A stretch of DNA of 64,000 nucleotides from Sphingobacteriales bacterium (GCA_043511425.1 CP121331.1:1529983-1593982); one strand, 5' to 3'. Positions 1 through 59,631 are shown, counted from the stretch's first letter. Notes: generated from the sequence alone by a model not told the origin. Numbers and translations: made by a program.

Positions 1-596
1 ACGGCTTGGGGTTTGTGCTCAGTGTCATTGCCACCAGCCTACTCCTCGCTAAGGCAGAAAGCACCGTATCCACGGTAAGTGCACTCGTGTACGGTGTTAG
101 TCTGATGACGCTCTATGCAGCCTCTACCCTCTACCACAGTGCCACGAAACCCAAACTCCGTAACCGCCTCAATATCTTTGACCACGCTGCTATATACGTG
201 CTCATAGCAGGTACCTACACGCCTTTTTGCTTGATTACGCTGGCGGGTAAACCCGGATGGATTTTGTTTGGATGTGTGTGGTCTTTTGCGCTCGTAGGCG
301 TCATCCTCAAGTTGTTTTTTACCGGTAGGTATGATCGCCTCAGTACGTTGATGTACATCTTTATGGGCTGCATGGTCCTCTTCGCTATCCAGCCTCTCAT
401 GGCTAATCTGCCTACAGAAGGACTGTACTGGCTTATGGGTGGTGGAGTTTCCTACATCGTAGGCGCAGGCTTTTACAGCTTTCCGCAGCGCATCCGCTAT
501 AACCACGCTATTTTCCATGTATTTGTGTTGGTGGGTAGTTTTTGTCATTTTTGGTCGGTGTATGGTTGGGTGATCTCGGTACAAAAGCATTTTTAA
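1..596 (+). CDS. Hemolysin III / PAQR family membrane protein, 5'-truncated by the window edge. The last ~20 nt run into the first repeat unit.
   Basis: ORF 6..596, 7-TM hydrophobic profile, and the conserved HxxxH-like C-terminal region (HAIFHVFVLVGSFCHFW) typical of the YqfA/Hly-III family. Confidence 0.7.
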   Translation, partial: GLGFVLSVIATSLLLAKAESTVSTVSALVYGVSLMTLYAASTLYHSATKPKLRNRLNIFDHAAIYVLIAGTYTPFCLITLAGKPGWILFGCVWSFALVGVILKLFFTGRYDRLSTLMYIFMGCMVLFAIQPLMANLPTEGLYWLMGGGVSYIVGAGFYSFPQRIRYNHAIFHVFVLVGSFCHFWSVYGWVISVQKHF

Positions 597-1000
597 TGCT
601 TTCACTCGATCTGACAAGCGTCTTCGCTATTGCCTTTTGGGTTGTTCTCTTCTCGGTACAAAAGCATTTTTGATGCTTTCACTCGATCTGACAACCATTC
701 TTTAACTGCAATTCTCGGCATAAAAGCCTCTTTGAGTGATGGCTTGTCTGTTCTCGGTACAGCCTCATCTTCGATGAGTGCCACTCGAACTGACAAGCGT
801 CTTCGTGACTACTTTCGGCTGTCGGGGCGTTGTCACTTCGAGTGATGTTTGCCGAAGGCGAAATCGTACCGAGAAGGGACAAGCGTCTTCGCATCAGCAG
901 TTCAGGTAGTTGGGAGGTTGTCACTTCGAGTGATATTCGCCAGAGGCGAAATCGTACCGAGAAGGGACAAGCATCTCAACTTCTCTTTGAACTTCTTCGC
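575..1000. repeat. Repeat cluster 1. Units: X (577-650), truncated X (651-700), a linker containing the conserved leader TGATGGCTTGTCTGTTCTCGGTAC (727-750), X (741-822), Y (826-912), and a truncated Y (913-985).
   Basis: Direct sequence comparison with clusters at 2769-2990 and 3297-4140. Shared blocks are CTCGGTAC, GACAAGCGTCTTCG, GTCACTTCGAGTGAT and CGTACCGAGAAGG. Confidence 0.85.
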
Positions 1001-1052
1001 AGGGTGTTCTCCTATTCGTGTATCTTTGTAACACTGAGGACCTTGCTAAACA

Positions 1053-2768
1053 TTGGAAGACCTCACACTATCTTTTATGACGAAACACAAATCACACTCC
1101 CGCACCAGAGCCCAAGAAAGTACCGGTGCCATACAACGCCTTTTTGTAACCATGCGCCACCTTTTTAATAGAGGCTTCTACAAACCCATGGGGGTCAGTG
1201 GCGAGACACTGCGTGAATCACTGCTTATCCTTAGTCCAGAGATCTACGGCAGTATCGCACAAGAAAAGGTAGAACTGGACGGATTACTCTACGTGATAGA
1301 CCGCCTACCGGAAGGTATAGAAGAGTGCAGATACATCAACCTGACCAGCGATGAGGGCTACTCTGATACGCACTTCACTCCCATCATACCACCGAAGCGT
1401 AGACGAAACTGCTACCGCATAGATGCCGAGCAGATGAATATAGAAATCACCCGAGGCCGCTCTGAAATCTACGATATCCTCACCCACCTTACCTTTCTAT
1501 TCATAGAGAGCCATAAGATTATGAAGCAGGTGCTTATCAATGACAAGGGCGATGTGAACCGCGATTGGCTCAAGCTAGAAGCGGCATCTCTGCAAAAGAA
1601 AAACCTAACCAAAGACGAACGTGAGGTAGCACTATCTCATACCGCCAACATTCTTGGACGCACCTTCAAAGAGGTCAGTGGCGTGTATGACAAGTTTAGC
1701 AGTGCTGAGAAGCCTGAGCGTTTCTTGGACATCATCTACTGGCTAGGAAAACTAGCGTTAGACGAGATACTGCACGAAAACAAACGTACGGTTACTTTTA
1801 GTTCGGTCCTGCGAGAGACCCTCGGGCAGCACATCCACGGCGAACGATGGGCAGACAACATCAAGGCAACACTGCACAAGCAAGGACTTCTGAACCGACC
1901 CATTCACATCATCAGCGCGAATATGCACAGTGTGCAAAACACACTCTACGCTCCAGAAGTGCTCAAAACCAAACTGAAAGGGCAATCTAAACTCCAAATT
2001 TTTGAAGAACTCAGCGCCCATTCACGACATCGAGATTCGGTCATAAAAGTAGCGACCAAAGAAGGAATGACATTCCTCAACGATACAAGCGGAAGCAACA
2101 TCGACGTACAGATTTTTGACACGGCTAAGTACACCACTGGAGCATACGCAGATAAAATAAAGCACCTCGATGCTGCCAATAAGCCTGTCATCGTCGTGAT
2201 GGACTACGCTTTTGGGGAGCAAGCCTATGAAACCATGGATGAACTACTCAAGCCGTACAAACCGGATGAAGATACTGTAATGTACCTTCAGGTGGCATCC
2301 ATCTCTATCATGGGTAAGGCGGGTATACTCACGGGTGGTAAGGGAGATATCATGATTCCTTCGTCTCACATTTTTGAAGGCTCTGCAGATAATTATCCGT
2401 TTGAAAACGGACTTCAGGTAGCCGATCTAGAAGGACATCATATAGGCGTGTACAGCGGCGCTATGATATCTGTACTCGGCACATCACTGCAAAACAAAGA
2501 TTTACTACGCTACTTCAATAGAAGTACCTGGGGAGTGATAGGGCTAGAGATGGAAGGAGCTCACTACCAAAAAGCGATACAAGCAGCTTCCAAGATACGA
2601 AAAAGCATCAGTCCGGATGTACGTGTAAACTACGCCTACTATGCGAGTGATAATCCGCTAGAAACAGGGAGCACACTGGCGAGTGGAGGACTCGGCACTA
2701 CCGGGGTGAAACCGACGTACCTCATCACGGAAAAGATATTGGATCAGGTGTTTGGTCCTTCTCGGTAA
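1053..2768 (+). CDS. Protein of 571 aa or less with a C-terminal nucleoside-phosphorylase (PNP/UDP_1) fold, AMP-nucleosidase-like. The N-terminal ~330 aa are not recognised. The true start may be an internal Met.
   Basis: C-terminal region has the hallmark G-x-I-G-L-E-M-E-G-A motif (GVIGLEMEGAHY) and GKAGILTGGKGD. Spacing and the C-terminal tail (YASDNPLETG) resemble the AMP nucleosidase catalytic domain. No Shine-Dalgarno, as is usual for Bacteroidetes. Confidence 0.4.
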   Translation: MEDLTLSFMTKHKSHSRTRAQESTGAIQRLFVTMRHLFNRGFYKPMGVSGETLRESLLILSPEIYGSIAQEKVELDGLLYVIDRLPEGIEECRYINLTSDEGYSDTHFTPIIPPKRRRNCYRIDAEQMNIEITRGRSEIYDILTHLTFLFIESHKIMKQVLINDKGDVNRDWLKLEAASLQKKNLTKDEREVALSHTANILGRTFKEVSGVYDKFSSAEKPERFLDIIYWLGKLALDEILHENKRTVTFSSVLRETLGQHIHGERWADNIKATLHKQGLLNRPIHIISANMHSVQNTLYAPEVLKTKLKGQSKLQIFEELSAHSRHRDSVIKVATKEGMTFLNDTSGSNIDVQIFDTAKYTTGAYADKIKHLDAANKPVIVVMDYAFGEQAYETMDELLKPYKPDEDTVMYLQVASISIMGKAGILTGGKGDIMIPSSHIFEGSADNYPFENGLQVADLEGHHIGVYSGAMISVLGTSLQNKDLLRYFNRSTWGVIGLEMEGAHYQKAIQAASKIRKSISPDVRVNYAYYASDNPLETGSTLASGGLGTTGVKPTYLITEKILDQVFGPSR

Positions 2769-2990
2769 AGTCTCTTCTCGGTACAGCCTCATCTTCGATG
2801 AGAGCCACTCGAAGTGACAAGCGTCTTCGCGATTACCTCTCGGGTTGTTCATTTCTCGGTACAAAAGCATCTTCGATGCTTCCACTCGAACTGACAAGCG
2901 TCTTCGCGATTGCATTTCGGTTGTCGGGAGGTTGTCACTTCGAGTGATGTTTGCCAAAGGCGAAATCGTACCGAGAAGTGAGCAACCATT
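2769..2990. repeat. Repeat cluster 2: X (2770-2857), X (2858-2925), and a truncated Y (2930-2985) ending in the CAACCATT terminal signature.
   Basis: Same unit families as clusters 1 and 3. It begins on the stop codon of the upstream CDS. Confidence 0.85.
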
Positions 2991-3006
2991 TTCTTACTTT
3001 TGACTC

Positions 3007-3303
3007 ATGAAGGAGCATCGTTATTTTATTTACATCTTACTTTGTGGAGATGGCACCTACTATACTGGCGTTACCAATAATCTTGAGCGAAGAGAAGCCG
3101 AACACTTAGACGGGTATAATGAAAGCTCGTATACACATAATCGTCAACCTACGAAACTCGTCTATCACGAAGAATTTAAATTCATAGACAAAGCAATTGC
3201 TAGAGAAAAACAGGTCAAAAAGTGGTCTCAAAAAAAGAAGAAGGCACTGATAGATGACTATGCTGATAGGCTACCAACTTTATCCAAAAAGAAGTTTGAT
3301 TGA
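3007..3303 (+). CDS. Small GIY-YIG nuclease superfamily protein (UPF0213/YhbQ-like), 98 aa, embedded between repeat clusters.
   Basis: N-terminal YFIYILLCGDGTYYTGVTNNLERREAEH matches the GIY-YIG catalytic core (GIY...YTG...N...R...EH), and the C-terminus is lysine-rich. The stop codon overlaps the conserved repeat leader. Confidence 0.8.
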   Translation: MKEHRYFIYILLCGDGTYYTGVTNNLERREAEHLDGYNESSYTHNRQPTKLVYHEEFKFIDKAIAREKQVKKWSQKKKKALIDDYADRLPTLSKKKFD

Positions 3304-4140
3304 TGGCTTGTCTGTTCTCGGTACAAAAGCATCTTCGATGCTTCCACTCGAACTGACAAGCGTCTTCGCGATTGCATTTCGGTTCTCGGAGCGTTGTCAC
3401 TTCGAGTGATGTTTGCCGAAGGCGAAATCGTACCGAGAAGTGAACAAGCGTCTTCGCGATTACCTTTCGGGTTGTTCATTTCTCGGTACAAAAGCATCTT
3501 TGATGCTTTCACTCGAAGAGACAAGCGTCTTCGCATCAGCAGTTCAGGTAATTGGGGCGTTGTCACTTCGAGTGATGTTTGCCAAAGGCAAAATCGTACC
3601 GAGAAGGGACAAGCGTCTTCGTTATTACTTTCGGTTGTCGGGGCGTTGTCACTTCGAGTGATATTTGCCGAAGGCGAAATCGTACCGAGAAGGGACAAGC
3701 GTCTTCGCGATTGCATTTCGGTTGTCGGGGCGTTGTCACTTCGAGTGATATTTGCCGAAGGCGAAATCGTACCGAGAAGGGACAAGCGTCTTCGTTATTA
3801 CTTTCGGTTGTCGAGGCGTTGTCACTTCGAGTGATATTCGCCAAAGGCGAAATCGTACCGAGAAGGGACAAGCGTCTTCGCGATTGCCTTTCGGTTGTCG
3901 GGGCGTTGTCACTTCGAGTGATATTCGCCAAAGGCGAAATCGTACCGAGAAGGGACAAGCGTCTTCGCGATTGCATTTCGGTTCTCGGAGCGTTGTCACT
4001 TCGAGTGATGTTTGCCGAAGGCGAAATCGTACCGAGAAGTGAACAAGCGTCTTCGTTATTACTTTCGGTTATCGGGAGGTTGTCACTTCGAGTGATATTC
4101 GCCAACGGCGAAATCGTACCGAGAAGGGACAACCATTCCC
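3297..4140. repeat. Repeat cluster 3. Leader (3300-3323), X (3316-3383), Y (3392-3478), X (3479-3555), then 8 tandem Y units of 86-87 bp with unit starts near 3558, 3644, 3731, 3817, 3904, 3991 and 4078. The last unit is truncated at GACAACCATTCC.
   Basis: Near-identical 87-bp periodicity read directly from the sequence. The units are open in multiple frames on both strands, which explains the spurious long ORFs in the six-frame track. Confidence 0.9.
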
Positions 4141-4208
4141 TTCCGGCTAGTCCGCTTGGCAAGAAGTTATTTTAACGCATATATTTTAAAATGAGCTTGC
4201 TCCTAGCA

Positions 4209-5072
4209 CTAACTCAGATCTACCGTGCGTGTGTAAATGACTTTACTGTCTCGTATGACTTTTATCTCGTACGCATCATTGGTATATACTGAATTATCAA
4301 ACTGATACGTGAGTCTATGCGGTCCTTTTGTCAATCGCTCGTATCGGAACAACTCTCGCACCATTCTACCTTCCATATCAAACATGGCTATTTCCAGCTT
4401 ACAATCCTCCGAAAACTGAATGTTCATAGTACCCTTTACCGCTATGCGTGGCTCTGCGTCGTAATCATATGCATAGCCGCTAAATGTTTCTGGTTTAGGC
4501 AATGGCTTACCGGTGAGCTCAGAAACATAATTGCGCAAGTGTTCAGCATTCTCCTTCTCTTTATCATAAATATTTTCGAGATCATCCTCATCTATCAGCG
4601 TCCATACTGCCTTTTGCCCAAGGCTGGCTCCTACTTTATTTTTGGACATGTAGTTTACCAACTTATAGAGCTTTTCATCTGCCTTTCCCTTCAGTGTATA
4701 GGTAGATTCAGCATCCCCAGCGGCATCACTAGACTCCATACAGTTCCCATAAAAAGGAATCTCCTTAGTCGTACCCGGCATTAGCTTCGCCAGTAGGGGG
4801 CGAGTTACCACAATATTTTGCTCCTCGTCATGATCCGCAGTAAAAACCATACCCACAGGAATGCCGATGACTACAGCCTTGGAAGTATTATTCGTTAGCA
4901 CAGCTGTTATCGGCTGCTCATAGTGCACCGAGTTCTCATTGTGTACAAATTGGGCTGAAATGACCTTTGTAGTGATGGCTTGATCAATCCATATTTTATC
5001 AGGATCCGAGGATGTAAATGCGCTCAATACGAGCAAGCTAAGTGCGGTGAGGACGTGTTTTTTTTCAATCAT
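4209..5072 (-). CDS. Hypothetical secreted protein. The signal peptide starts at MIEKKHVLTALSLLVLSAF.
   Basis: ORF with an N-terminal signal peptide and no recognisable domain. The annotated start is placed at the internal Met before the hydrophobic segment. Confidence 0.4.
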   Translation of the reverse strand: MIEKKHVLTALSLLVLSAFTSSDPDKIWIDQAITTKVISAQFVHNENSVHYEQPITAVLTNNTSKAVVIGIPVGMVFTADHDEEQNIVVTRPLLAKLMPGTTKEIPFYGNCMESSDAAGDAESTYTLKGKADEKLYKLVNYMSKNKVGASLGQKAVWTLIDEDDLENIYDKEKENAEHLRNYVSELTGKPLPKPETFSGYAYDYDAEPRIAVKGTMNIQFSEDCKLEIAMFDMEGRMVRELFRYERLTKGPHRLTYQFDNSVYTNDAYEIKVIRDSKVIYTRTVDLS

Positions 5073-5310
5073 TTTCTTAATATTTTTAAGTGTTAAAAAT
5101 AGTTCGGGTAAAAAAATAATTTGATTGGGGAGCAGCCGTCTCATCTCCAAAATCGGAGGATTAACTCAAGCACGCTCAATTTTAGAACGTACCAATTCCT
5201 CTAAATCGTAGGTATTGTTTTTAAAAATGTAGAATGTCACATTCCTCCAAAAAGGCTGAGACCTATTTAAACGCAGGTTTCGGTCTATGTATTCACGACT
5301 GTAGCACTCA

Positions 5311-7047
5311 CTAAATTCTACTCTGATAGGTGTACAGTTCGTAGTATCTTCCTTTTTTGTCTAACAGCTCTTGGTGCTTGCCACGTTCTGCAATATGACC
5401 ATCTTCTATCACTAGAATCTGATCTGCTTGCTGTATGGTACTCAGCCTGTGTGCGATTACAAAGGTGGTGCGGTCTTTCATCAGCACGTTTAGACTTTTT
5501 TGGATAAAGCTCTCACTCTCCGTATCCAGGTTACTGGTAGCCTCATCTAGAATAATGACTTTAGGATCTGCGAGCAATGCTCTAGCTATAGAGATACGCT
5601 GACGTTGACCACCGCTTAACTTTACTCCTCGCTCTCCGATTACAGTCTCTAGTCCATCCTCAAATCTATCGGTAAACTCGTTCACATAAGCCCCTTCTAC
5701 TGCTGCCTGCACTTCTGCTTCCGTAGCATCTGGCCGTGGGAAAAGGATGTTTTCTCTGATGGTCCCTTCGTACAAGAAATCATCCTGTAGGACCACACCG
5801 AGGTGTTGCCTAAAGCTATTTAGGTTTACATGAGCCAAGTCTTTGCCATCCATAGTCACTTTTCCACTCACTGGGTTCAGGAAGGTCGCCGCTAAGCCTG
5901 CTATGGTAGACTTCCCACTACCACTACTACCCACGAGTGCAGTCACACTTCCTGCATTGGCCTCAAAACTGATATCATGGAGTACTTCTTTATCTTCCTC
6001 GTAGCTAAAACTAACATTGTCAAAAACTATATTCCCTTGAATATCTTCCAAGACTACGTGACGTACTTCTGGATCATCCTCTTCGGTCATATTCATCAGT
6101 TCCTGTGTACGGTCTAGACCTGCTAATGCTTCGGTAAGCTGACTGCCGATATTACTCATCTGTACGATAGGTGCTACCATAAATCCTAGAAACAGTAAAA
6201 AGGAGACTAACTCTCCTGCCGTCATACTACCTACCATGATAAAGTAGCCGCCCATTCCCATAATACCAACGGTAGCCATCCCGAGTAAGAAAGTACTGGA
6301 GCTCGTCATTAATGCTGTGGCCGTCAGACTCTTTTTAACGTTTTGGTACAATCGGTCTACCCCTGCTTCAAATCCTTTATTCTCTTGTTCCTCTGCATTG
6401 AAACCTTTGATGACACGGACTCCATTTAGGGTTTCGGTTAATCTCCCGGTGACTTCTGCATTGATCTTTCCACGTTCCCGAAAAATCGGACGTATATACC
6501 CAAACGCTTTTAGAGCAATAAACCCAAATAACCCTACGGGCAAGAACACAAACAGCGTCATCATAGCGTTGATTTTAATTAAAAATGCAAAGGCAACTAC
6601 TGCCGTCACTGTCCCTCCTATGAGCTGTACCAAACCCGTACCTACTAGGTTTCGGACACCTTCTACATCACTCATCACTCGACTTACCAGTGCTCCACTT
6701 TTATTGTTATCAAAGAAAGCTATGGGCAGTGTGAGTAGTTTTCGCTGCACCCGAGCACGCAACTGCGCGATGAGTAACTGTGCCTCTACACTCAGGAGTC
6801 TGGTGAGAATAAATGAAGTAGCTGCTTGGATCAAAATAGCACCTGCTACCATAAAAATAAGCTGCCACAGTGCGGAGACATCTCCACTTGGCACTACAAC
6901 ATCAAGCAGATTTTTCGTCTCATAAGGCAATACTAATCCTGACAAACTGCGAATGACAATAAATATCAATCCGATAGCCAGCATTTTTCTGCGAGGCCAT
7001 ACGTATTCTTTCAATGCCCAAGTGAGGGACACTTTTTTCTTACTCAT
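5311..7047 (-). CDS. ABC transporter with fused permease and ATPase domains (MsbA/lipid-A-export-like exporter).
   Basis: 6-TM N-terminal domain; Walker A GSSGSGKST, ABC signature LSGGQRQR, Walker B ILDEATS, and H-loop. Confidence 0.85.
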   Translation of the reverse strand: MSKKKVSLTWALKEYVWPRRKMLAIGLIFIVIRSLSGLVLPYETKNLLDVVVPSGDVSALWQLIFMVAGAILIQAATSFILTRLLSVEAQLLIAQLRARVQRKLLTLPIAFFDNNKSGALVSRVMSDVEGVRNLVGTGLVQLIGGTVTAVVAFAFLIKINAMMTLFVFLPVGLFGFIALKAFGYIRPIFRERGKINAEVTGRLTETLNGVRVIKGFNAEEQENKGFEAGVDRLYQNVKKSLTATALMTSSSTFLLGMATVGIMGMGGYFIMVGSMTAGELVSFLLFLGFMVAPIVQMSNIGSQLTEALAGLDRTQELMNMTEEDDPEVRHVVLEDIQGNIVFDNVSFSYEEDKEVLHDISFEANAGSVTALVGSSGSGKSTIAGLAATFLNPVSGKVTMDGKDLAHVNLNSFRQHLGVVLQDDFLYEGTIRENILFPRPDATEAEVQAAVEGAYVNEFTDRFEDGLETVIGERGVKLSGGQRQRISIARALLADPKVIILDEATSNLDTESESFIQKSLNVLMKDRTTFVIAHRLSTIQQADQILVIEDGHIAERGKHQELLDKKGRYYELYTYQSRI

Positions 7048-56563: not shown

Positions 56564-58045
56564 TTAAAATTTTGTTGTAAGTGTGAGCATAATTCTGGTG
56601 TTCCTAAGCTTAGAGTTCACTGCACCAGACGGCTCGCTATTGAGCGCATAAGGCACATATACGTCAGAGGTAATCTCCCTCGCTAAACCAAAGTCAAATG
56701 CCCATGCTTTCTCTTGAAAACCAACACCTCCACTGATAATATTTCTGCGGTAATCGCCCCCATTCTGTAAAGGAGATCCTATACTCGCAAAACCGCCTCG
56801 TAATCTAAAATCACTCACTGCATACTCCCCTCCTATTTTAAATGTGGTGGCTGTACCATACTTTTCCGTGATGAGCTCATTTACTCCGTCAAAGAATGCA
56901 TCCTCACTGCTCAAGTTCATTGTACTGTAGTCTGAGGTCTCTATCTCAGCACTTAACAGACCCTGCTTGCCAAAGATGTACGTTCCTTGTAGTCCGTATT
57001 TTGCAGGAGTCACTACCGTGTAGCTAAATTCTTTATCAATAGTAGTAAGATCTTCTAAACTTCCATCATCATACAGCACAAACAGCTCGTCACTGTACTT
57101 GTCCGTCAAATTAAGTAACGTCGGCGTGTGCATAGTCCCTCCAATTCGGATGTTATTATTAGGCCTAAAAATAACTCCGAGTCTACCACTAAATCCCTGG
57201 CCGTTTGTTTCCAGGTTTCGTGTAAGATCAAATGAACTCCAATTCCCAGAGGTATTGGGATTGTCTATCTCAGAGAACACATTGGTCTCTGTATAATTCA
57301 CATTATGTACGTTAATCGCGGCACCGAAATATATTTTATGCTCATAGTTCCCAGCGAAGGCCAGATTAAATTCACCTGATGAACCTCGTGTCACCACATT
57401 ACCTGACTGACCAATATTCCCAGCTACATTATCCATGTTTGCATAGTAATTCCCATTGCTTGCTGAGTCTATAAGATACCCGTACCAAAACATGTTTTCC
57501 ATATAGTAAAAACCCTGTGCCAATTGCTCATCATTGGCATCCAGCTGAGAGACACCTAACCCTTGTACATACTGAGCTACGTAGTTGGTATAGGAGTTAT
57601 TACTCGTTCCTTTATAGCTAATATTTCTGTTGAAATCATTTGTTCTGTTATATCCTATTGCCCAGTTCGTGTTTACCCAGCCCCTTTTCAAGGGGTTCCC
57701 GTTTTGTGTTTTTACCTGTGTATTTACTAAATTGATACTATTAAACTGCCCATTAAATAGATTAGATCTTCTAGAATTACCTAGATAATCAGCATCATTT
57801 TGCTTTGTGGCAGTAGACAGTGTAACATTGAAAGTACCTGTTCTGTACTGTGCTAATCCGGCGGGATTTACCAATATAGAAGTTTGGTCAGCACCCATAG
57901 CTCCTATAGCTCCTCCTAGACCTAGTGCTCTTGCGGTGGACGCTGAAACATCCCCCTGACTATATCTGAGTACATCTAAGTCGCTCTGTGCAGATGCATT
58001 GGTAATCAGTAGCCCAATGAGGGCGGTAAATAATATCTTTTTCAT
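56564..58045 (-). CDS. FadL/PorV-family outer-membrane beta-barrel transport protein.
   Basis: Signal peptide, then ARALGLGGAIGAMGADQTSILVNPAGLA (N-terminal hatch with NPA motif). Aromatic C-terminal strand ...TLTTKF. Confidence 0.55.
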   Translation of the reverse strand: MKKILFTALIGLLITNASAQSDLDVLRYSQGDVSASTARALGLGGAIGAMGADQTSILVNPAGLAQYRTGTFNVTLSTATKQNDADYLGNSRRSNLFNGQFNSINLVNTQVKTQNGNPLKRGWVNTNWAIGYNRTNDFNRNISYKGTSNNSYTNYVAQYVQGLGVSQLDANDEQLAQGFYYMENMFWYGYLIDSASNGNYYANMDNVAGNIGQSGNVVTRGSSGEFNLAFAGNYEHKIYFGAAINVHNVNYTETNVFSEIDNPNTSGNWSSFDLTRNLETNGQGFSGRLGVIFRPNNNIRIGGTMHTPTLLNLTDKYSDELFVLYDDGSLEDLTTIDKEFSYTVVTPAKYGLQGTYIFGKQGLLSAEIETSDYSTMNLSSEDAFFDGVNELITEKYGTATTFKIGGEYAVSDFRLRGGFASIGSPLQNGGDYRRNIISGGVGFQEKAWAFDFGLAREITSDVYVPYALNSEPSGAVNSKLRNTRIMLTLTTKF

Positions 58046-58110: not shown

Positions 58111-59631
58111 CTACCTTCTTCTTCCTCCAGAACTGCTTCTGCTTGGAGTTGCCGAGCGAGATGGACTGCTACTGCGGCTTGGGCTAGCACTTCTGCTCGG
58201 AGAGCTACTTCTACTGGGGGTTGTAGCTCTTGGCGTGCTACTTCTGCTTGGTGTCGTTGCTCGTGGAGTACTACTTCTGCTTGGAGGAGTATACGACCTG
58301 CTCGGCGTGCTGCTTCTACTTGGCGTTGTTGCTCTTGGCGTAGTGCTTCTGCTAGGGGTCGTTGCCCGTGGAGTACTACTTCTGGTAGGAGGAGTATACG
58401 ACCTGCTCGGAGTGCTGCTTCTACTTGGCGTTGTTGCTCTTGGCGTGTTGCTTCTGCTCGGTGTCGTTGCTCGTGGAGTACTACTTCTGGTAGGAGGAGT
58501 ATACGACCTGCTCGGTGTGCTGCTTCTACTAGGTGTTGTAGCTCTTGGCGTGCTACTTCTGCTCGGTGTCGTTGCTCGTGGAGTTGTAGTTTCATTAGAG
58601 CGAGTAGTCCCCCCAGTTGAATTGGTACCAACGTTACCTCGAGTACCTTCGCCTCTCACCGTCCCGCTATTACCTCTAGTATTGCCTATTGGCTCTGATA
58701 CGTTTGAAGGTCTTCGCGAAGGAGTAACAACTCTTGCATCTCCAACTCCTCCAGAACCTACTTCCTCAGTAGTACCTCCTCGAGTAGTTACCTCCGTTCG
58801 TTGACCTCCTAGTCTACGTGTATTCACACTTCCACTTTGAGAGGTGGAAGTATTACCCCCTACTCGCTGCCTTGGGCTATTTGCTGCTCTATTATATCTA
58901 TCCGATCCTGAGTAGCCTAAACCTCTATTCCCGTTTCCTCCATTATTGGACGAGAATACCCCTCTATTTCCGTTCCAGCCATTGTTCCAGCCGTGATTAT
59001 TGTATCCATTCCCCCATCTGTTCCCGGAGTAGTACCCGCCGTTATTCCAACCTCCATAGTATGGATTACCACAGTAGCCTCTACCATACCAGCCATTATT
59101 CCATGGATTTCCATACCAGCCACCTGCGTATGGATTCCCCCAAGAATATCCACCGTACCAACCATTCCAGCTGTTGTACCCAAAGCTCCATCCTCCGCGT
59201 GGTCTGGTCCAATAGTTATTGCCATACCAGCCACCAGTATATGGATTTCCCCAAGATTACCCGCCGTACCAACCATTGTTCCAGCTATTGTTCCATCGAT
59301 TATCTTGATTGGCATCTTGATATCCCGCGGCATAGCCATTTTCATAGGAATACTCAAATTCTTCCCCTCTAAATCTACGGATTCTTCTTTCGTAATCCGT
59401 TTCATCTACATCAGCGTAGTCTTCTGTCGGGATAGCCTCTTGATTTTCTGATAAGCGCACAGGCTCTTGCGGTGTATATTTTTCAGGAGCTGGTTGTGGT
59501 ACTTTTTGTACAACGATAATGTCATCTTCTGGAGTATAATAGACATCATCCATAGCGGTGTTGGTCATCCTAGTGCTGGTGCAGCTTGCTAGGAAAATAG
59601 TGGCGAGAGTGAGATACGTGTATAATTTCAT
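58111..59631 (-). CDS. Low-complexity lipoprotein: signal/lipobox, then an acidic region, then a W/G/Y/N-rich repeat region, then an S/T/P/R-rich region with 3 tandem 35-aa repeats, ending GGRRR. The single frame is interrupted by one TAA at 59257-59259.
   Basis: ORFs 59257..59631 and 58111..58827 are in the same frame with no other stop between them. The stop is a TAT-to-TAA difference relative to the neighbouring repeat copy ([14 protein letters not shown] versus [13 protein letters not shown]). Confidence 0.55.
58215..58600. repeat. In-frame tandem repeat, 105 bp x about 3.5 copies (anchors at 58253, 58358, 58463 and 58568), encoding [35 protein letters not shown].
   Basis: Exact 105-bp periodicity of GTCGTTGC and GAGTATACGACCTGCTCGG in the sequence. 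Confidence 0.85.

Follow-up and report, generated by a model that had tools for sequence, protein, structure and literature searches.

A directional intergenic hairpin repeat flanking a small GIY-YIG gene: probable sites of an Ssn-like nuclease acting on single-stranded DNA

A stretch of 64,000 nt from a Sphingobacteriales bacterium (GCA_043511425.1 CP121331.1:1529983-1593982; 'the window' means the whole of it, and coordinates count from its first letter) carries at 560-4140 short repeats in a mosaic that surrounds three genes of the + strand, which encode an HlyIII-family, a DUF6909 and a GIY-YIG protein. The repeats, known as X and Y units, contain a central hairpin, and the original prediction took changes that preserve its pairing as a sign of conserved secondary structure, likely of an RNA made from the + strand. 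The locus therefore raises the question of what this hairpin is kept for, and whether it would be recognized as RNA or as DNA. The answer that we favour, by analogy with characterized enzymes, is that the repeats are most likely the cognate single-stranded DNA (ssDNA) sites of the adjacent 98-aa GIY-YIG nuclease, and that the locus is probably a flavobacterial variant of the Ssn nuclease/hairpin-repeat system, acting on ssDNA.

When each copy is written on its own strand, the X and Y units are one hairpin repeat of ~55 nt in opposite orientations. As written from the window copies this module reads [TTGTC]nn-TTCTCGGTAC-A/G-[hairpin ~20 nt]-CACTCGAA-nTGACAA(GC), with the consensus [TTGTC]nn-TTCTCGRTAC-A-[variable hairpin]-YACTCGAA-nTGACAA. 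The boxes are common to both units and the hairpin is the sole difference between them, while the 'linker' leading from an X unit to the next Y is, seen from the Y side, its own reverse complement. The boxes TTCTCGRTAC and YACTCGAAnTGACA are not complementary to each other, which makes the module directional. We call the 'F strand' the strand that reads 5'-TGTCAnTTCGAGTG-hairpin-GTACCGAGAA, in full 5'-TGTCAn-TTCGAGTG-[hairpin]-Y-GTAYCGAGAA-3'; in the window, Y units have it on + and X units on -. A covariance model (R1) put the number of modules in the 64 kb at exactly 18, of which seven have the X and 11 the Y orientation, all inside 565-4133, and gave no further match at E <= 1 in the other ~60 kb. 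The idea of a CRISPR array was rejected, as unique spacers are absent.

Further copies were collected by scanning GTDB representatives with an exact two-box pattern that leaves the gap between the boxes free, which gave 20 loci (Winogradskyella, Neotamlana, Lacinutrix, Polaribacter, Patiriisocius and metagenome-assembled genomes (MAGs) of Bacteroidia), and marine metagenomes with a looser box pattern, which gave at least 120 contigs; the family-wide counts given below rest on the matches listed. Combined, the Flavobacteriaceae genomes and marine metagenomes hold at least 357 modules in 158 sequences, of which at least 282 are unique, with 135 hairpin clusters. The modules are mainly intergenic, 31 of the 357 lying inside open reading frames (ORFs) as called by a crude ORF caller. 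Because the search patterns imposed the boxes, box conservation is partly by construction, whereas covariation of the hairpin was not imposed.

The hairpin sequences are unrelated among these genera and MAGs and the stems nearly always form, starting 1 nt past the 5' box, ending at the 3' box and spanning 4-14 bp (mostly 6-8). A best-stem score of at least 6 was reached by 60% of copies compared with 3% of shuffled segments. In a gapless seed of 36 sequences, 94.0% of cells are paired, as opposed to 69.1 +/- 1.6% after shuffling and at most 60% with slid partners, double-change cells number 105 vs 31.5, and all seven hairpin pairs have changed on both sides. Similarly, 148 distinct copies, in an alignment that was itself fitted to the structure by the model, are 97.3% paired vs 72.9% when shuffled, with 379 vs 95 double-change cells. 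The window alone gives the same picture (18 modules, 15 distinct): 99.4% paired vs 81.1 +/- 2.0% shuffled and at most 57% with slid partners, 36 vs 11.9 double-change cells, and again seven of seven pairs changed on both sides. These data show decisively that the hairpin structure is conserved while its sequence is free. The original prediction had claimed just this, that structure rather than sequence is constrained, and had proposed that pairing be followed across aligned copies; with the copies from other genomes added, the covariation is overwhelming. The three states of the loop-closing pair from which it had argued (C:G, T.G and T:A) are real, but as evidence they were anecdotal, coming from five copies with two of the states seen in single instances.

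Both strands can fold, because the module is nearly palindromic. Which of them tolerates wobble was read from transition-type mismatches, counted with a stem finder that scored G.T and A.C identically. The strand reading TTCTCGRTAC first (the + strand for X units) has 53 A.C and 12 G.T mismatches (binomial p = 3e-7), or 19 and 6 at the level of clusters (p = 0.015), and the wobble-tolerant strand is therefore TGTCAnTTCGAGTG...GTAYCGAGAA, i.e. the - strand for X units. On this F strand every modelled hairpin pair of the window is standard, and the loop met most often in the family is C-GAA-G, which as a DNA triloop context is notably stable. The F strand also turns the two CTCG boxes into CGAG facing CGAG, where tandem sheared G.A pairs could form, and it is favoured by whole-module folding energy, largely through the invariant boxes. 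The earlier argument that the wobble fits only the + strand does not hold: the copies at 2853 and 3315 have at the stem base an A x C on the + strand that is a G.T on the - strand. The lesson is that neither an RNA nor its strand can be identified from compensatory changes plus a single wobble when the repeat is a DNA palindrome.

A sub-family of modules (L005, L007, L012, L032, L074, L108, L124, L134 and L145; L numbers are our handles for retrieved sequences) has a 5-bp stem and a 9-nt loop, which on the favoured strand reads GAGGCACGA, GAGGTACGA or GAGGAACGA and is kept across genera. The conserved loop suggests a second recognition feature.

Could the favoured strand be that of a transcript? 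A structured RNA, whether a small RNA or an element of the 3' untranslated region, made from whichever strand is transcribed and keeping the hairpin for folding, would account for the strong covariation, and wobble-type mismatches enriched on one module strand are a classic RNA signature. With RNA parameters, moreover, the hairpin alone is the more stable on the favoured strand in 83 clusters vs 37; strand energies nevertheless cannot separate RNA from ssDNA, because the hairpin-alone difference shows with RNA parameters only. The modules also stand in transcribed positions directly past stop codons (50 within 15 nt of a stop codon vs 7 near a start; 66 between convergent genes vs 23 between divergent ones), and the 11 Y units of the window show the favoured strand on +, 3' of + strand genes. 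Their orientation, however, takes no account of transcription. Many loci hold arrays in which modules alternate in orientation, and relative to genes the two orientations are equally frequent: between co-directional genes 77 modules are co-oriented and 84 anti-oriented, and within 15 nt of a stop codon the figures are 24 and 26. Since orientation relative to the neighbouring gene is unbiased, mRNAs would carry the 'wrong' strand half the time, and since X and Y stand opposite within the same intergenic arrays, no single transcribed strand shows all modules in one sense. For an element with a preferred strand, such indifference to the way in which genes are transcribed points towards recognition as DNA.

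Other results lead the same way. Rfam gave no match at gathering thresholds in the whole window, and at E <= 10 over 500-4250 only two chance matches, both inside the DUF6909 ORF. T-runs are absent after the central hairpins, so that these are not intrinsic terminators, and the terminator-like matches of a terminator/promoter scan in the repeats were other short stems only. The non-complementary boxes (CTCG facing CTCG) are better suited to recognition by a protein than to a helix, and the modules are tightly linked to the gene of a nuclease whose characterized relatives ignore RNA. We therefore consider a structured RNA unlikely, and the proposal of an RNA on the + strand in particular was not upheld, given the opposite X and Y units, a wobble that favours the - strand for X, the unbiased orientation and the lack of an Rfam match.

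Kilobase stretches that hold no ORF of 90 aa or more occur at 4600-8100 in L157 and 3900-4650 in L104, filled with regular module pairs of alternating orientation and a period of ~200 nt; the hairpin AATTTTCTATCGAAAAT recurs in L157, L104 and L113.

The modules and genes of the window are arranged as follows, with R1 scores in bits.

6-596, + strand: HlyIII-family gene (ORF call)
565-618, - strand: X module, 59.6 bits; hairpin 585-601, with the HlyIII stop TAA (594-596) in its loop
642-695, - strand: X module, 64.1 bits; hairpin 662-678; loop-adjacent T.G on +, C x A on the F strand
743-797, - strand: X module of a second hairpin type, CTCATC-TTC-GATGAG, at 764-778; 52.6 bits
829-883, + strand: Y module, 47.8 bits; F strand is +; hairpin TTTGCC-GAA-GGCGAAA with a T.G wobble
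917-971, + strand: Y module, 46.9 bits; ~85-110 nt 5' of the DUF6909 gene
1053-2768, + strand: DUF6909 gene (Pfam PF21850, E 5e-60)
2767-2821, - strand: X module of the second hairpin type, 52.3 bits; hairpin 2788-2802
2845-2898, - strand: X module, 67.1 bits; hairpin 2865-2881; stem-base A x C on +, G.T on the F strand
2931-2985, + strand: Y module, 50.3 bits; conserved box ends at 2977, model match at 2985
3007-3303, + strand: predicted gene of an Ssn-like, single-domain 98-aa GIY-YIG nuclease (Pfam PF01541, E 2.7e-15, residues 6-78)
3307-3360, - strand: X module, 66.1 bits; hairpin 3327-3343; box starts at 3315, model match at 3307
3393-3447, + strand: Y module, 52.1 bits
3472-3525, - strand: X module, 62.7 bits; hairpin 3492-3508, loop TTT
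3559-4133, + strand: tandem array of seven Y modules (TRF period 87, 7.1 copies, 89% matches), 46-52 bits each
3559-3613, 3645-3699, 3732-3786, 3818-3872, 3905-3959, 3992-4046 and 4079-4133, + strand: members of this array, period 86-87 nt
4209-5150, - strand: unannotated ORF (ORF call)
5311-7047, - strand: ABC transporter gene

The hairpins from which the original prediction started all exist, although in five of seven cases the coordinates that it gave are shifted by 2-4 nt. AAGCATC-TTC-GATGCTT stands at 3327-3343 as it said, and a second copy at 2865-2881, given as 2868-2884; the supposed third copy (3490-3506) really lies at 3492-3508 and has the loop TTT, not TTC. AAGCATT-TTT-GATGCTT is present at 662-678 rather than 664-680, and AAGCATT-TTT-AATGCTT at 585-601 rather than 588-604. 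For CTCATC-TTC-GATGAG the position 764-778 was right, and the other copy is at 2788-2802 instead of 2792-2806.

Of the three genes, two are bracketed by modules: DUF6909, with a Y unit at its left and X units at its right, and GIY-YIG, whose product contains no other domain and which has a copy of the X-linker-Y doublet in the same orientation on either side (repeat family D3; 141 nt at 94% identity). The nearest modules start ~10-30 nt from either end of the GIY-YIG gene with their TGACAA ends facing outward, the Y module at 2931-2985 ending ~20-30 nt before the start codon and the box of the X module at 3307-3360 starting ~11 nt past the stop codon. All 18 window copies are within 2.5 kb of this gene. 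The inverted doublet at 2845-2990, composed of modules 2845-2898 and 2931-2985 and a 32-nt linker, folds as a four-way junction, with a minimum free energy as ssDNA of -34.7 kcal/mol (z -6.3). The seven-module array lies between the gene and the convergent ORF 4209-5150(-), its modules being separated by a linker of the form GACAAGCGTCTTCG...TTTCGGTTGTCGGGGCG.

Linkage of the gene to the repeats extends well outside this genome. Relatives keep the GIY-YIG gene between the DUF6909 and ABC transporter genes, and repeats stand on both sides of it in L003/L022, L004, L012, L020, L050, L051 and L134 too. Among the matches listed, 4-5 of the 120 metagenome loci retrieved by the repeat contain the gene, directly flanked every time. 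In addition, homologues retrieved by protein sequence alone (L032, L033, L034, L036, L162, L163 and L165) lie in seven non-syntenic contexts, namely next to DUF58/DHquinase, RibD plus a ligase, YjdM/MraZ, a homoserine dehydrogenase or a SIR2-domain gene, after rpoC and after HflX. In seven of seven contexts the gene has beside it the module itself or a version that has diverged or lacks the hairpin; the diverged repeats flank the gene in all but L165, where they are downstream only. They read TTTGTCACACTAAGTG-hairpin-TGTATCGAAGTGTAGACAAA in L036, GTCAGTTCGAGCCTGTCGAGAAC in L163 (hairpin-less), GTCATTTCGAGCGAAGCCGAGAAATGAC in L033, and GCTGAGCGRAGYCGAAGC in L034, L165 and a Sphingomonas plasmid.

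In the MAG L004 (4228-5140) the GIY-YIG gene stands apart from the DUF6909 and ABC transporter genes, 2.6 kb away rather than between them, and is bracketed by two ~270-bp direct repeats, each with two modules and a degenerate one; this looks like an insertion into, or a duplication of, a repeat doublet. More distantly, homologues in Methylobacterium bullatum (L158) and on a Sphingomonas parapaucimobilis plasmid (L159) share 48% identity with the window protein and have on both sides inverted hairpin repeats of their own (CCTCATCCTGAGGTGCC...AGGCCTCGAAGGAGG, and GGGCTTCGACTTCGCTCAGCCTGAACGG), which do not fit the published SRM pattern discussed below.

A small nuclease among hairpin repeats recalls the Ssn proteins, single-domain GIY-YIG enzymes of ~94 aa (CDD cd10448), most of whose genes are flanked by hairpin repeats of 20-50 nt, termed NTS/SRM, that are given a direction by non-palindromic flanks, can number up to hundreds and gather near certain genes (Chenal et al., Nat Commun 2025, PMC11893778). 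The enzymes of Neisseria, N. elongata, N. wadsworthii and Wolbachia bind their own repeat and cut a few nucleotides upstream, in ssDNA only and on one strand only, being inactive on double-stranded DNA and RNA; the characterized Ssn does not interact with RNA (PMC11893778). The authors of that study themselves draw a parallel with IS200/IS605, repetitive extragenic palindromes (REPs) and bacterial interspersed mosaic elements (BIMEs) (PMC11893778). The system described here agrees with this in many respects. A single-domain GIY-YIG protein of ~95 aa has hairpin repeats of 20-55 nt on both sides of its gene; the repeats occur in many copies, intergenic with few exceptions and grouped near particular genes, and non-palindromic flanks give them a direction; a box of the type GTCA(T/n)-TTC opens them; and their sequence co-diverges with the nuclease. 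There is also a strand asymmetry, seen here in wobble-type mismatches. The Neisseria NTS is GTCAT-TCCCGCG-MAV-GCGGGAA-TC (PMC11893778); the modules resemble it only in the GTCA(n)TTC at the beginning and the GAA at the end, and the hairpin-less core of the L033 repeat, GTCAT-TTCGAGCG-AAG-CCGAGAA, resembles it as well. The differences are that the flavobacterial module has an extra, sequence-free hairpin at the apex of its conserved core, and that the hosts have no known link to natural transformation.

On the reading that we prefer, the strand 5'-TGTCAn-TTCGAGTG-[hairpin]-Y-GTAYCGAGAA-3' would fold wherever DNA becomes single-stranded, in replication, in repair or as incoming DNA; the nuclease would recognize the boxes as the hairpin presents them and cut nearby, on the F strand only; and the repeats would multiply locally, giving inverted doublets and tandem arrays in the manner of BIMEs.

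The likeness to BIMEs also suggests an alternative in which the GIY-YIG gene is a bystander and the modules are a generic selfish repeat, similar to REP/BIME or to MITEs (small transposable elements with inverted repeats), spread through slippage and recombination or by another enzyme, for instance a Y1 transposase of RAYT type, and perhaps serving secondarily to stabilize mRNA 3' ends. With the REP/BIME-RAYT (TnpA-REP) systems of Enterobacteria and Pseudomonas the modules share imperfect palindromes in both orientations, location after genes, an enzyme gene flanked by the repeats and, if the nuclease acts as proposed, recognition of an ssDNA hairpin with a conserved foot. BIME-like mosaics, with inverted doublets and alternating tandem arrays, are found in many loci, the doublet folds as a long cruciform, and gene 3' ends and convergent intergenic regions are preferred, as they are by REPs. 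Modules even supply the stop codons of two ORFs. The HlyIII ORF runs into the X copy at 573-610 and ends at the TAA in its hairpin loop, the 'compensated' T:A hairpin variant being the very one that makes this stop; and the DUF6909 ORF ends in ...GPSR*, its last codons and TAA coming from a partial module copy, TTCTCGGTAA, at 2759-2768.

REPs, however, are species-specific in sequence, and the modules show the reverse: their stems are hypervariable and vary freely, and their flanking boxes are conserved across genera. The enzyme differs too, for the gene bracketed by the repeats encodes a GIY-YIG nuclease in place of an HUH/Y1 transposase; no Y1 transposase was seen beside the repeats, the rest of the window not having been screened for one. 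It also counts against a bystander that the repeat, or a version that has diverged along with the gene, accompanies every GIY-YIG homologue examined, in the seven unrelated contexts as in the syntenic ones, and that all of the copies in the 64 kb gather around the one gene. We regard a generic selfish repeat as improbable, to about the same degree as a structured RNA.

Since each of two genes is bracketed by modules, one may also think of integron-like cassettes, DUF6909 and GIY-YIG, set between folded single-stranded sites on which a tyrosine recombinase acts. The logic of attC sites is indeed alike, with strand selectivity, folded ssDNA, short conserved boxes and a variable paired centre. 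On the other hand, the order DUF6909-GIY-YIG-ABC is kept in relatives, which is unexpected for cassettes, and up to seven modules follow one another in an array with no intervening ORF; we rejected integron cassettes on these two grounds. The box sequences are different as well (the R-box consensus of attC is GTTRRRY, which the modules lack), there is no attI, and an integrase is not consistently nearby, a single Xer-like gene near L032 being the only one. The probability that we give to this explanation is very small.

Several points weigh against an Ssn-type system. Binding and cleavage of ssDNA and the biological role are things that we infer by analogy with the Neisseria and Wolbachia enzymes. 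The modules fail the published SRM search pattern, HGTCWYN(0-2)YYVSBRHN(0-5)WNVSBRGN(0-2)RNCYNB, which had 0 matches in the window, L012, L022, L032-L036 and L158-L161; it is likewise unmatched in the repeats beside alphaproteobacterial and Legionella homologues. In Neisseria, altering the stem sequence while keeping the hairpin abolishes activity (PMC11893778), whereas the stems are hypervariable here, so that recognition would have to differ. The closest solved structures are UPF0213 proteins (1zg2, E 2e-11; 1ywl, E 7e-10), and such relatives may be a sister group of the Ssn clade; an NCBIfam search with the 98-aa protein gave no match. The strand asymmetry is modest once copies are collapsed into clusters, and under DNA parameters the F strand gives the hairpin by itself no greater stability (49 vs 66, p = 0.11). 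A pair between the boxes, 5'-box position 7 with 3'-box position 1 (G:C, A:T and A/C seen, G/T almost never), seemed to covary in the 71 copies collected first and in the alignment fitted by the model, but in the metagenome set, searched with a pattern allowing all four combinations, G:Y covariation has a Fisher p of 0.16, and we dropped the pair as evidence. Lastly, most repeat-bearing loci hold no GIY-YIG gene in the retrieved DNA, which is also what a REP-like repeat with a bystander gene would lead one to expect. A literature search for GIY-YIG proteins together with REP, RAYT, MITE or Flavobacteria, or for the box sequences, found nothing specific.

With these points set beside the linkage and the likeness to Ssn, we still hold an Ssn-type nuclease and its sites to be the probable explanation. 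If the 98-aa protein does cut ssDNA at the modules, Flavobacteriia would hold a large and naturally diversified set of Ssn-type nucleases and sites in which, unlike in the Neisseria enzyme, the stem of the hairpin can vary freely and reading is confined to the ~18 nt of the boxes; this would be relevant to the engineering of site-specific ssDNA cutters and would account for a type of intergenic repeat that is widespread in marine flavobacteria. A more ambitious version, which we think unlikely, would see here a distinct recognition design within Ssn-type systems, two short single-stranded boxes (CGAG facing CGAG) brought into register by an arbitrary hairpin. In this version the GIY-YIG gene and its modules would form a present or recent self-propagating, repeat-seeding element, i.e. 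a counterpart of REP/RAYT driven by a GIY-YIG enzyme, and the first case in bacteria in which this nuclease fold catalyses a transposition-like spread.

The repeats also have consequences for annotation, as they give stop codons to real genes and create spurious ORFs and N-terminal extensions in database proteins. The tandem arrays (3394-4175, both strands) contain long ORFs that are spurious, among them 3563-4162 (-) and 3579-4175 (+), with lengths reaching 199 aa. In the database entries P0004 and P0007 (142-143 aa, 'putative endonuclease') the N-terminal extensions are translated repeat modules, and these caused false tblastn matches on the arrays.

Two other repeats of the window lie outside the module region. 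At 58111-58827 (-), a 105-nt tandem repeat (3.7 copies, 90% matches) lies in an ORF for a low-complexity protein rich in Ser, Thr, Pro and Arg, which adjoins a 493-aa ORF at 56564-58045 on the same strand. The intergenic segment 49027-49093 consists of ~11 AAGTTT/AAGATT-like hexamers directly after a stop codon.

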